DNA of 64,000 bases from a virus. Its lineage: Duplodnaviria; Caudoviricetes. The stretch covers positions 78,408 to 142,407 of IMG/VR virus record IMGVR_UViG_3300010283_000005, one strand, 5' to 3'. Under the pieces are notes generated by a model that was given only the letters and a program-made list of their open reading frames with translations, was not told the DNA's origin and did not search any database. A program made the position numbers and the translations under genes. Below, one piece after another: positions 13,564 to 62,832 of this stretch (its first letter is position 1; every line of letters begins with the position of its first letter).

Positions 13564-13592
13564 TATAAACGTATCTATGAAAAAATTTACTC
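13564..13592 (-). promoter_or_regulatory. Phage-type promoter GAGT-N17-CGTTTATA
   Basis: Exact motif on the minus strand upstream of 13047-13550. Confidence 0.75.
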
Positions 13593-13610
13593 AAATTTAG
13601 TAAAAACCTT

Positions 13611-13664
13611 TTGACATTTGACGTAAAATGTGTTATAATTAGTATAGGGGGTAACTAAATATAG
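13611..13664 (+). promoter_or_regulatory. Host sigmaA-type promoter, copy 1 of a 49-nt direct repeat
   Basis: TTGACA-N17-TATAAT with TG extension; 13616-13664 is identical to 13788-13836. Confidence 0.85.
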
Positions 13665-13692
13665 AGTAATTAGAAGGTGATGAACGTTTATA
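13664..13692 (+). promoter_or_regulatory. Phage-type promoter GAGT-N17-CGTTTATA upstream of the sigma-like gene
   Basis: Exact motif match. Confidence 0.7.
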
Positions 13693-13782
13693 GGTAAGGA
13701 AAGGAAGGTTTCGGCAAATTGCCCAAATTTCACACCCTAGATTTGGTCAAAACGCTGAAATTTAAAAATTTGCTAAAAACGT

Positions 13783-13836
13783 TTGCAATTTGACGTAAAA
13801 TGTGTTATAATTAGTATAGGGGGTAACTAAATATAG
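13783..13836 (+). promoter_or_regulatory. Host sigmaA-type promoter, copy 2
   Basis: TTGCAA-N17-TATAAT with extended -10 TG; second copy of the 49-nt repeat. Confidence 0.8.
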
Positions 13837-13897
13837 CAAGATGAGGTTACCAACTAAGCTTAAGAAGAAATTCACTTAAATAAGGAGTTCCATTAAA

Positions 13898-14878
13898 ATG
13901 GCAGAGAACAAAGAATTCAAATTTGAAGGTAACGAAGTTGATCTTGAGGAAGTCCTCAAGTGGGCAAATGGTCTGGTTAAGGAAGCTAAGGCTAGCAAGG
14001 CTGATGAAAAGATGAACAAGGTTAAGGAGATCGTTGAGGGAGTTGCTCGTAAGTATGCTTCCAAGTGGATCGATCGCGAAGACCTGGAGCAGGACTTGTG
14101 GGTATCTAGCTTGGAGCTCATCAATCGTTGCGGAGGAATTGAAAATACCGACCTCAAGCTCATCGCTAAGAATGCTTGGAATAAGGCAGTTGACTCCTAC
14201 CGCTACAACCGCAGAAGACATGATTCCAAAGTTCGCTTGATTGATGAGAGCGAATCCGACGATGGTGATTATTCTGCTGGTGGAGCGGATCAAGCTCAGT
14301 ACTTCACAGCCAAATCAAGGACAGGCTATGATGAAGCAATTCTGAGAGAGGTAATCGATCTCTTCCCTGAAGGATCCAGACAGCGTAAGTATGTGGTCGC
14401 TAAGCTGTACTCCTATGGTGAAATCGATGACAACTCCGGATTGCCTGATGAACTTCAGCTCCCTGAGGCTGATGACGAAGCGAGCTTCCTGAAGCTGATC
14501 GGATTCAACTCCCGTTATCCTGCTTCTTGGGGCAAGATGAAATATGAAATCCGTGAGAAGATCTACCGTTACTTAGGTCTGATGCCGGAGTCTTACGAAG
14601 ACGATCCTAAGAAAATGCTCGAGTGCATCCGTGATCGAGTTGAGACCTTGTTCAGTGAGACTCGTTCTGGATACATTGGTTTGGACAGGCTTGCAAAGGA
14701 TAAGGTTCTGATCCTGATGGGTGCAAATGAAGATCGCATCTGGGAAGCTATGACTTCCAGCAGAAAGCTCCTCAGAGGACTCACTGCTCAGGGTGGCAAG
14801 TTCTTAATGAAGGACGAGCCTAGATACCACAAGAACTCCGAGAAGAACCACGATGTAATCATTCCTCGTGAGAAATAA
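13898..14878 (+). CDS. Phage-encoded sigma70-family-like factor
   Basis: Region-2-like ARKYASKWIDREDLEQDLWV...IAKNAWNKAVDSYR and region-4-like LREVIDLFPEGSRQRKYV; driven by sigmaA promoters. Confidence 0.7.
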   Translation: MAENKEFKFEGNEVDLEEVLKWANGLVKEAKASKADEKMNKVKEIVEGVARKYASKWIDREDLEQDLWVSSLELINRCGGIENTDLKLIAKNAWNKAVDSYRYNRRRHDSKVRLIDESESDDGDYSAGGADQAQYFTAKSRTGYDEAILREVIDLFPEGSRQRKYVVAKLYSYGEIDDNSGLPDELQLPEADDEASFLKLIGFNSRYPASWGKMKYEIREKIYRYLGLMPESYEDDPKKMLECIRDRVETLFSETRSGYIGLDRLAKDKVLILMGANEDRIWEAMTSSRKLLRGLTAQGGKFLMKDEPRYHKNSEKNHDVIIPREK

Positions 14879-14892
14879 GAGGACAGGCTATC

Positions 14893-14923
14893 GGTCAGCT
14901 CTGAGCAATCGGAGCTGACTTTT
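14893..14923 (+). terminator. Intrinsic terminator overlapping the next phage promoter
   Basis: GGTCAGCTCTGA-GCAA-TCGGAGCTGACT-TTT. Confidence 0.75.
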
Positions 14924-60620: not shown

Positions 60621-60874
60621 TGCACTACACTTATATAGTAGAATGTGCTGATCATACTCTGTATACAGGATATACTACTGATCTAGCTAGGAGAGTAGCT
60701 GAGCATAATGGCAGTTCTAAGGGAGCTAAATACACTAGGACTAGGAGACCAGTAGTCCTAGTGTATAGTGAAATGCACAGCACTAGATCAGAAGCAATGA
60801 AACGAGAATCAGCAATCAAGCATCTCAGTCGGAAGGAGAAGCTAGAATTGATCCAGAATAAGAATCAGCAGTAA
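60620..60874 (+). CDS. Small GIY-YIG nuclease (UPF0213/YhbQ-like)
   Basis: YTYIVEC.D.TLYTGYT.DL.RR..EHN...GAKYTR.RRP...A.KRE..IK. Confidence 0.9.
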   Translation: MHYTYIVECADHTLYTGYTTDLARRVAEHNGSSKGAKYTRTRRPVVLVYSEMHSTRSEAMKRESAIKHLSRKEKLELIQNKNQQ

Positions 60875-60883
60875 GGAGAACCT

Positions 60884-61291
60884 ATGGAAATATATGGATT
60901 ACTTATTAAGAAGCAGTATCTAGATCTGATTCTAGATGGATCTAAGGTATGGGAACTCCGTTCTAGGAATACTTCTAGGAGAGGAGTTATCTGTTTGATA
61001 GAATCAGGATCAGGTTTGATCAGAGGGCTAGCAGACCTTAGCTCTACTATTAAACTAGATAAGACTAGCTATGACAGTAATTACAAGTTGCATCAAGTCA
61101 ATATTCCTTATGAGAATTGTAAATGGAATAGGTATGCATTGGAATTTGATTCAGTAGAAGTCTTAGATCACCCTATAGCCTACCAGCATCCTCAAGGAGC
61201 AGTCATCTGGGTTAACTTATCCGATAAAATTCTGAATTCTAAGGACAAGGATCTACTCGAGAATATGATTGCTACATACCATGAGGTATAA
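60884..61291 (+). CDS. ASCH domain protein
   Basis: L.IK..Y..LIL.G.K.WELRS..T..RG...QG...W. Confidence 0.85.
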   Translation: MEIYGLLIKKQYLDLILDGSKVWELRSRNTSRRGVICLIESGSGLIRGLADLSSTIKLDKTSYDSNYKLHQVNIPYENCKWNRYALEFDSVEVLDHPIAYQHPQGAVIWVNLSDKILNSKDKDLLENMIATYHEV

Positions 61292-61303
61292 GGAGGTGAG
61301 AAT

Positions 61304-61693
61304 ATGCTCAAACTTATAATTAATGGATCAAGATCATTTCATAATTACTATCAGATGAAGACTATCCTGAAGAAGTACCTTATTGAGCACAAGGTCAATC
61401 CTGCTCAGATAGAAGTTATTTCAGGTGGAGCTAAAGGAGCAGATCAACTAGCAATAGAACTAGCTAATGAGTATCAACTTCAGCTAAAAGTAATGAATGC
61501 TGACTGGGATACTTATGGCAAACGAGCAGGATTGATTCGTAATCAGGCTATGCTAGATTATGCTACATTGAATCCATTAGATACTGCAGTACTGCTATCA
61601 TTCTGGGATGGTCAATCTAGAGGGACTAAACATATGATAGATATATGCAAGACTAAGGGTATTCAAGTAGATATAAATTTGTTTCATGAATAA
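61304..61693 (+). CDS. SLOG-family (YspA/DUF2493-like) protein
   Basis: IINGSR.F, SGGAKGAD, ADW..YGK.AG.IRN..M and FWDGQSRGT.HMI. Confidence 0.88.
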   Translation: MLKLIINGSRSFHNYYQMKTILKKYLIEHKVNPAQIEVISGGAKGADQLAIELANEYQLQLKVMNADWDTYGKRAGLIRNQAMLDYATLNPLDTAVLLSFWDGQSRGTKHMIDICKTKGIQVDINLFHE

Positions 61694-61702
61694 GGAGATA
61701 CT

Positions 61703-62425
61703 ATGCCACTAAAAATTATAAGAGAAGAATGTATTAAAGATAATAAAGTATATCTTACTAATAAGAATACAGGAGAAGTCATAATTCTCACTGGAGTAAC
61801 TGATGCTAAGCTTACTATAGATACAGGTAAGAATATAATATTCCTAGATATCGATGGAGTACTTAATGGTCCTAACTTACTGATCAACTGCTTCTACGAT
61901 ATCATGTATAAGTTAAAGCTATCTGATTTAGCTCATCGTATAGTTGAGATATTCGGAGTGCATGAGACTAAGGTGAAGAGATTAGCTAAGATAGTGAAAG
62001 CTACTGATGCTAAAGTAGTCATGTCATCTTCTTGGAGAAGATCATACTGGAGCTACAAGAATCATCCTTCAGATTTCAATAAAGGATTTAGTGATATTGT
62101 TGAGCTAGATAGATTATTCAATAAGTATGGAATTGAAGTAATAGATATCACAGGCAGTGATCCTAATGGTAGGCGAGGATTAGAAATCCTTCAATGGCTA
62201 GCTGAGCATGAATCTGAAATCAATAGCTTCTGCATTATAGATGATGAGAAGTTCGATATAGAAACCTTGTTTGCAGATCGATTAGTATATACTGGAGTAG
62301 GTACTAATTATAAATCAGTTTACTATGGACTAAGGCATAAGCATGTACTAGAAGCTATTGATTTACTGAATAATCATCCATTATTAAGAACTAATCCTAA
62401 AAGAGTAAGTAGGTGGATTATATGA
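61703..62425 (+). CDS. HAD-superfamily protein (Swiss-army-knife RNA-repair type)
   Basis: IFLDIDGVLN, VMSSSWR, RG.EI..WL and IIDD. Confidence 0.85.
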   Translation: MPLKIIREECIKDNKVYLTNKNTGEVIILTGVTDAKLTIDTGKNIIFLDIDGVLNGPNLLINCFYDIMYKLKLSDLAHRIVEIFGVHETKVKRLAKIVKATDAKVVMSSSWRRSYWSYKNHPSDFNKGFSDIVELDRLFNKYGIEVIDITGSDPNGRRGLEILQWLAEHESEINSFCIIDDEKFDIETLFADRLVYTGVGTNYKSVYYGLRHKHVLEAIDLLNNHPLLRTNPKRVSRWII

Positions 62426-62441
62426 ATTCTAGCAAGGGTAC

Positions 62442-62832
62442 TTCAGGTAATGATTAAGTGACTATACGGGGTAAGTAGTATATGCTTATAAATGGGGTAA
62501 TAACTAGTAATAATGAGTGATTATGAGGTAATTATGAGCTCAAAGGGGTTCTAAGATAGGGTAATTCATGATGAGAATTTAGTACTCTAGCTTAACCGTT
62601 GGGTGAGGTCCCCTCCGATCGAGTAAATGGAATGGGATCATTATAATGATGCTCTATAAGGGTAATAATACATCAATAATCAAGTACTACTTACCCTGAA
62701 TAACATAGATATCATGTACTACTTACCCATAGTAGCATAGCTGAGTGGATCTAGTGCCAGATACGTTTATACTGGTATGGTAAGTCCGCTGAGCTAGTCA
62801 TTATTCAAGTAATCATTACCCTGAATAACATA
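62442..62832. repeat. Intergenic cluster of direct and inverted GGTAA/TTACC-core repeats
   Basis: 62681-62707 vs 62806-62832 match at 24/27 (direct). 62461-62484 is inverted to 62713-62733, and 62442-62456 to 62810-62825. Confidence 0.7.
62743..62771 (+). promoter_or_regulatory. Phage-type promoter
   Basis: GAGT-N17-CGTTTATA. Confidence 0.75.

Follow-up and report, generated by a model that had tools for sequence, protein, structure and literature searches.

The window analysed here, a stretch of 64,000 nucleotides (nt), comprises bases 78408-142407 of the 142,407-bp record IMGVR_UViG_3300010283_000005, a complete phage genome with terminal repeats and a GC content of 40.3%. It contains a recurrent bipartite motif, GAGY-N17-CGTTTATA, and an open reading frame (ORF 13898-14878) that appears to encode a diverged sigma factor, and we consider it likely that this sigma is made from a host promoter and then drives transcription from the motif sites through the host core polymerase. 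Positions are those of the window unless they are called genome positions. In the proposed cascade, the host's RNA polymerase, carrying its housekeeping sigma, would start at the sigma-A promoter or promoters at 13611 and 13783 and so yield the phage sigma, which would join the host core polymerase and direct it to some 27-29 promoters. There, sigma domain 4 (sigma-4) would read GAGY and sigma domain 2 (sigma-2) the CGTTTATA box, with the transcription start predicted 5-9 nt beyond TATA, inside a conserved TGTAAGG. All non-structural blocks would be turned on in this way, from the tRNA/small-RNA region to the genes for replication, recombination and nucleotide metabolism, and these promoters would also drive the sigma gene itself, in a positive loop, and the sole minus-strand gene. 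The structural genes would lie outside this regulon. We infer the sigma as reader, the start site and the timing from sequence. The initial annotation had called the motif the middle promoters of a sigma encoded by ORF 13898; the promoter-like sites, the sigma fold and the presence of the box in four sigma-encoding phages uphold the link, and the word "middle" stays a matter of inferred timing.

The exact motif occurs at 13 sites in the window, 12 on the plus strand and one on the minus strand (13564), where 0.02 would be expected; none of the 100 shuffles used to set the chance level reached 13. The box alone, CGTTTATA, is found 14 times against 0.94 expected. All 13 positions listed by the initial annotation were recovered, with no others, and so were its two variants with an 18-nt spacer: the one at 19241 has CGTTTATA and the one at 15766 has CGTTTACA, the latter lying, as had been described, within a homing endonuclease gene ahead of a GyrB-like gene. 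A scan of the whole genome, which had been proposed as a check, found 27 CGTTTATA boxes (26 on the plus strand, one on the minus strand), of which 24 have GAGY at N17 and two at N18, and one has GAGG replacing GAGY. Only two one-mismatch variants of the box with a correctly placed GAGY exist genome-wide, so the motif class is very sharply defined.

The placement of the boxes is equally regular. By a rough gene call, all 27 are intergenic and oriented as the next gene, which bears out genome-wide the claim that the sites sit upstream of genes in the gene's orientation. In most cases the start codon follows at a distance of 19-205 nt; the few larger distances in this gene call reflect miscalled starts. 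No box falls at genome positions 36.2-91.9 kb, the structural block of about 56 kb that holds the terminase, head and tail genes; the absence first noticed in the structural module at 1-13 kb thus holds both there (zero copies in 1-13,500) and over this larger gap. The series carries on across the ends of the record, with the next promoter at genome position 1007. Being bipartite, of fixed spacing, intergenic and co-oriented with genes, the sites look like promoters, and these features together support that reading.

When the 27 sites are aligned, the consensus reads gGAGYaAAT, then about 12 variable positions, then ACGTTTATA, followed by cTTnTGTAAGG, and the spacer columns between the two blocks show no conservation. 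Taking TATAnT as the -10 hexamer places GYaAAT at -35 to -30 and CGTT at -16 to -13, with a spacer of 17 bp, a geometry that fits that of a sigma-70-type promoter. The one indirect pointer to a start just downstream comes from stem-loops that open at GTAAGG, at the extreme 5' end of the predicted RNA, in about half of the sites. An ACTAAAT-like element is found exactly 20 nt upstream of GAGY in eight of the 27 promoters, against 0.53 expected. Its role might be that of an upstream enhancer element, or the winged helix of the sigma, described below, might bind there.

The strongest evidence is comparative, and consists of the co-occurrence of the sigma family and the box. Megablast found no match to the region in 50,697 phage records. 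At the protein level, tblastn of ORF 13898-14878 against the same records (E 1e-3 or better) found homologs only in Bacillus phage SP-15, Listeria phage LIS04 and Bacillus cereus phage vB_BceM-HSE3 (HSE3), at 29-31% identity. These phages are also rich in the box, its excess being gauged against a reversed-pattern control: SP-15 has 43 CGTTTATA boxes (control 6), HSE3 has 34 (control 2) and LIS04 has 39 (control 3). For the phage studied here, the corresponding comparison is the expectation of 0.94 against 14 in the window. The boxes in the relatives are mostly on the coding strand, and they too leave a gap, at 36-87 kb in HSE3, which is its structural block, and at 36-78 kb in LIS04. The sigmas of the three phages (in HSE3, gp103 and gp001) are homologous to ORF 13898-14878 at 27-31% identity and are annotated as "sigma-70 family". 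HSE3 gp103 is cited by Casas-Pastor et al. (2021, PMC7826278) solely as a sigma lacking Pfam domains.

A fourth phage was located by the motif alone. In IMG/VR (2.9 million viral contigs), the strict GGAG-type pattern matched ten contigs once each, and among these was G002, an uncultured 98-kb phage with a complete genome and 34% GC. It has 17 CGTTTATA boxes (reversed control 3), which carry GAGT at N17. G002 also encodes a homolog of the sigma (E 1e-39), with a near-consensus sigma-A promoter, TTTACA-N17-TATAAT, immediately before the gene. Three other motif-matched contigs that were checked had chance-level box counts and no sigma. A looser motif scan of IMG/VR gave only chance single matches among the matches listed, and protein-based locus searches of viral and metagenome contigs gave short or distant loci only. 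One 2.4-kb metagenome contig encodes a 39%-identical sigma (42% over the best local alignment) and has GAGT-N17-CGTTTATA directly after the gene.

The two promoter halves behave differently between lineages. In SP-15, HSE3 and LIS04 the consensus is GCTC.ATT, a spacer, aaACGTTTATA and then.T.gTGaag. The -10 box and the start region (downstream T..TG.AAG) are thus identical to those of the present phage, but the -35 element is GCTC instead of GAGY. Each lineage has only one of the two -35 types: GCT-type pattern matches number 0 in the present phage, 24 in SP-15 and, over 75 kb, 14 in HSE3, and GAG-type matches number 11 in the present phage and 0 in both SP-15 and HSE3. The strict GCT-type pattern was found in IMG/VR in an SP-15 contig only. 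Between the GAGY and GCTC lineages sigma-2 is 42-50% identical, but sigma-4 only 24-29%, which agrees with a reading of the invariant box by sigma-2 and of the changed -35 element by sigma-4.

The ORF itself was called sigma-like by the initial annotation, a call that the profile and fold searches back up. It gives the sole Sigma70_r2 match in the genome (residues 45-106; 16-18 bits against a cut-off of 24), and a family profile search of the genome found no second copy. Among database sequences it has 36 homologs with 39 to 97% identity; Sigma70_r2 matches 22 of 23 aligned family members, and TIGR02937, the sigma-70/ECF superfamily model, matches all 23, with a best E of 2e-9. A structural model of the whole protein (pLDDT 80) aligns over residues 16-106 with sigma domain 2 (3ugo_A, Z 7.7 over 89 residues), other aligned domain 2 structures being 4x8k, 1sig, 8b3z and 5h6x; Foldseek with the whole protein gave no significant match. 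A separate model of residues 138-230 (pLDDT 91) was compared with 48,161 chains: the top 22 matches are all sigma chains, over region 4, as are 25 of the top 27 (Z 4.0-5.2, 57-73 residues aligned). ECF sigmas are among these matches, and individual examples are SigB (8x6g_H, Z 5.2), SigL (6dv9_F, Z 5.0), sigmaE region 4 on its -35 DNA (2h27_D, Z 4.2) and chain F of the phiEco32 gp79-RNA polymerase complex (9m7y, Z 4.9), which we take to be the phage sigma. Foldseek matches of this model were also to region 4 (TM 0.5-0.58), with E-values that are not significant. In the model, a disordered linker (111-140) connects two helical domains, and region 1.1 and sigma-3 are absent. From the profiles and models we conclude that ORF 13898-14878 encodes a diverged two-domain sigma that carries a winged helix in addition and is a predicted partner of core polymerase. 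As for the earlier label "ECF-like", the two-domain architecture agrees with it, but the protein scores below every curated ECF cut-off; we therefore describe it as ECF-like in architecture and do not file it as an ECF member.

The order of events in the cascade is suggested by the promoters in front of the sigma gene. In a scan of the 142-kb genome for TTGACA-N16-18-TATAAT, the match at 13611 is the sole one with no mismatch that is on the plus strand and intergenic; one further perfect match lies on the antisense strand inside a gene. With a consensus host promoter directly before the sigma gene, the host polymerase can make the sigma first, and with a copy of the motif (13664) also upstream of it, the sigma can reinforce its own synthesis; positive autoregulation is probable. 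The segment of about 55 nt that holds the sigma-A promoter is duplicated in tandem (13611-13836), and the two copies are separated by the phage-type promoter plus some 90 nt that carry no annotation. Positions 13700-13780 could give rise to a short leader or small RNA. The neighbours of the sigma gene are an orphan ORF without family match and a homing endonuclease gene, and nothing there identifies an anti-sigma factor.

Several points weigh against a phage sigma as the reader of the motif. All sigma profile scores are below the curated cut-offs: for Sigma70_r2 by the margin given above, and for TIGR02937 with 16.4 bits against 42.9. The Pfam region-4 models do not match ORF 13898-14878, a profile of the sigma family matched no solved sigma among PDB sequences, and the fold Z scores are middling (5-8). 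SP-15 and HSE3 each have two sigma paralogs, either of which might read the box there. Finally, the TATAnT within the box is a 5/6 match to TATAAT and could be used by host sigma-A. This last point leads to the main rival explanation, to which we give a small share of the probability: host sigma-A would read TATAnT as its -10 element, with a phage activator bound to GAGY and/or CGTT, much as T4 appropriates the host polymerase by MotA/AsiA, and ORF 13898 would be a helper or something else. The canonical 17-bp spacing to the upstream element speaks for it, as do the sub-threshold scores on which the sigma assignment rests. However, CGTT is invariant in every copy across five phages and no more than 20 of this phage's 27 sites have a T at the would-be -7 position, the reverse of sigma-A conservation. 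The upstream element is also unlike TTGACA, and a TTGACA-like -35 is missing from all 27 sites, yet the phage does have a full sigma-A consensus at 13611. In addition, ORF 13898 has both DNA-reading sigma domains, and no MotA- or AsiA-like gene was seen.

It is much less probable that a host alternative sigma (ECF, SigH-like or similar) reads the motif and that the phage exploits a host regulon. ECF promoters have a CGT-containing -10 element and a fixed spacer, and in both respects the motif does resemble promoters of alternative bacterial sigmas. On this explanation, however, the identical box would need one host sigma common to the Bacillus subtilis, B. cereus and Listeria phages and to two uncultured ones (34-40% GC). 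The strict motif never occurs more than once per genome among 185,579 bacterial species genomes, the seven single matches being mostly one orthologous site in Sutterellaceae, and the box tracks the phage sigma gene.

A very diverged phage RNA polymerase, missed by family models, is a still slimmer prospect. Conserved sequence does extend past the predicted start, as in T7-type promoters, and two proteins of 446-447 amino acids have no PHROGs or Pfam match. Against this, no multisubunit polymerase family matched in the phage, the controls having matched in 14 of 14 genomes; a search for T7-type polymerase families also found no match, but was run without a positive control and is uninformative. 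The large ORFs without annotation resemble a superfamily 2 (SF2) helicase and a VWA protein, the proteins of HSE3 with polymerase-related annotation have no homolog in this phage, and promoters that depend on a sigma typically show this bipartite build with a variable spacer. Just as improbable is that the motif is no promoter at all and acts either in RNA, for processing or stabilisation, or in DNA, for replication or packaging: GTAAGG does often begin a 5' stem-loop (about 12-14 of 27 sites by eye; mean z -1.1, with 8/27 below z -1.5), but two blocks at a fixed distance with a non-conserved 12-nt spacer indicate duplex DNA read by a protein, and each operon has one site, always ahead of the genes and in their orientation.

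Phage sigma cascades, to which we assign the present system, are textbook knowledge, with SPO1 gp28 and gp33/34, T4 gp55 and phiEco32 gp36 as examples. The proposed likeness to SPO1 gp28 lies in a large lytic phage with translation and promoter grammar of Gram-positive type, in which transcription from a host sigma-A promoter yields a phage sigma that sends the host core to bipartite promoters before replication genes and the structural genes are left to a later class. SPO1 itself was not among the tblastn matches of ORF 13898. The SPO1 middle promoters have AGGAGA / TTTNTTT, a consensus that differs from the GAGYaAAT / CGTTTATA seen here. With ECF sigmas and with phiEco32 gp36, which is an ECF-like phage sigma (PMC12276001), the protein shares sigma-2 and sigma-4 joined by a flexible linker, a CGT-containing -10 and a promoter of its own type before its own gene; it differs from ECF sigmas in its score below their cut-off, in having no AAC in the -35 region and in the extra winged-helix domain. 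In the literature on the motif string, SP-15, HSE3, Thornevirus and phage sigma factors, we found no description of this promoter and no characterisation of the sigma family.

The structural block has a conserved element of its own. A second box, GCTTAmCCGTTAGAg, occurs at genome positions 40394, 64676, 75232 and 77548, in each case on the plus strand, intergenic and followed by a hairpin, and is absent from SP-15, HSE3 and LIS04. It is a candidate late promoter. The late (gp34-type) consensus of SPO1 is CGTTAGA(N17-19)GATATT (PMC3601020). The box contains the SPO1 late -35 word CGTTAGA, but in a single block and without a GATATT partner, and we rejected it as a promoter of the SPO1 late type.

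The C-terminal winged helix of the predicted sigma (residues ~235-311; 14598-14830) is structurally nearest to ESCRT-II VPS22/25 and La-motif domains, with Z 8-9. It is confined to a subfamily of 311-335 amino acids and is absent from the short homologs (P0034-P0036), from G002 and from the SP-15, HSE3 and LIS04 sigmas, the last three of which thus differ from ORF 13898-14878 in lacking about 100 C-terminal amino acids. The 8-bp invariant box together with the discriminator and the start region comprises about 19 contiguous conserved positions, and these are unchanged although the sigmas are only about 30% identical between those phages. On this basis one can propose, as a long shot, that the family reads its promoters in an unusually extended way, with the helix of the long-form sigmas perhaps serving as a third module for reading DNA, in contact with ACTAAAT.

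The surroundings of the sigma gene are partly shared with HSE3, where gp103 lies between the lysis genes and gyrB, its position in the present phage. The gene order common to both runs from the lysis genes through sigma, gyrB, helicase, topoisomerase A, helicases and primase to RecA. The place of the annotated helicase of HSE3 is occupied by ORF 19295-21109 (604 amino acids), which has no Pfam or PHROGs match and in a protein atlas shows likeness to SF2 helicases of the ResIII/DEAD/YonV type. The second HSE3 paralog, gp001 (62-670, minus strand), is near the start of the linear record; it aligns over sigma-2 only, has no sigma-4 and has an odd N-terminus, and its gene model may be wrong. On the other side of the sigma promoters, the orphan ORF 13047-13550 is the sole clearly called minus-strand gene of the phage, with three weaker minus-strand calls of 45-67 amino acids. 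It has no Pfam or PHROGs family and no match in phage records, and its only homologs are at least 74% identical. Its product consists of two similar halves, and a bidirectional hairpin terminator (12979-13046) ends both this ORF and the last preceding plus-strand ORF (12511-12978). A role as a late-gene factor was considered for the orphan, and no support was found.

Table 1. Predicted promoters, related elements and neighbouring genes; coordinates are those of the window unless marked as genome positions.
Feature	Coordinates	Strand	Details
Orphan ORF, 165-167 amino acids	13047..13550	-	under the minus-strand motif promoter
Putative motif promoter	13564..13592	-	sole minus-strand copy; ahead of the sole clearly called minus-strand gene
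Sigma-A-type promoter	13611..13639	+	TTGACA, 17-bp spacer with TG extension, TATAAT; perfect match; upstream of sigma gene
Putative motif promoter	13664..13692	+	between the two sigma-A promoters; 205 nt before sigma start codon
Near-duplicate sigma-A-type promoter	13783..13811	+	TTGCAA-N17-TATAAT, equal spacer; 87 nt before sigma start codon
Predicted phage sigma factor, 326 amino acids	13898..14878	+	sigma-2 ~41-107, disordered linker 111-140, sigma-4 ~143-227, winged helix ~235-311
Putative motif promoter	14912..14940	+	ahead of homing endonuclease, GyrB-like, RNase H and UDG genes
GIY-YIG/NUMOD3 homing endonuclease	15114-15896		just before GyrB-like gene 15832-17772
Variant, 18-nt spacer, CGTTTACA	15766..15795	+	inside homing endonuclease gene; 37 nt before GyrB-like start
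Variant, 18-nt spacer, CGTTTATA	19241..19270	+	ahead of diverged SF2 helicase-like gene 19295-21109
Putative motif promoter	22321..22349	+	ahead of topoisomerase A-subunit gene 22378-24240
Putative motif promoter	26150..26178	+	ahead of small ORF, then ResIII/DEAD helicase 26801-28306
Putative motif promoter	28307..28335	+	ahead of intein-containing DnaB-like helicase 28365-30827
Putative motif promoter	33367..33395	+	ahead of SSB-like and UvsX/RecA-like genes
Putative motif promoter	38467..38495	+	ahead of DNA polymerase gene 38524-42183
Putative motif promoter	43411..43439	+	ahead of nucleoside deoxyribosyltransferase and SbcC-like block
Putative motif promoter	49658..49686	+	ahead of NAD-dependent DNA ligase and NrdD block
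Putative motif promoter	56314..56342	+	ahead of small ORFs from 56367
Putative motif promoter	58235..58263	+	ahead of ORFs from 58276
Putative motif promoter	62743..62771	+	ahead of small ORFs from 62850
ACTAAAT-like element	near 22321, 26150; genome 9602, 11675, 26778, 33617, 36140		~20 nt upstream of GAGY
Box near-variant	genome 21317		GAGT, 18-nt spacer, CGTTAATA; intergenic, in tRNA/small-RNA region; sole further near-variant of the promoter

What emerges is a tidy example of a known strategy, the phage sigma cascade, and not a new mechanism. It would give an uncultured 142-kb phage a whole transcription programme, from one host promoter to one phage sigma to about 27 promoters, and it would supply the promoter consensus for a family of phage sigmas that is hardly picked up by annotation pipelines. 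The box is present in SP-15, HSE3 and LIS04, which can be cultured, so the prediction is open to bench tests now. For the annotation of this phage group, the motif is useful as a mark of operon starts. The GAGY and GCTC -35 elements on a common -10 box offer a natural pair in which to study the evolution of sigma-4 specificity, and the two -35 specificities could supply orthogonal sigma/promoter parts for Bacillus engineering.

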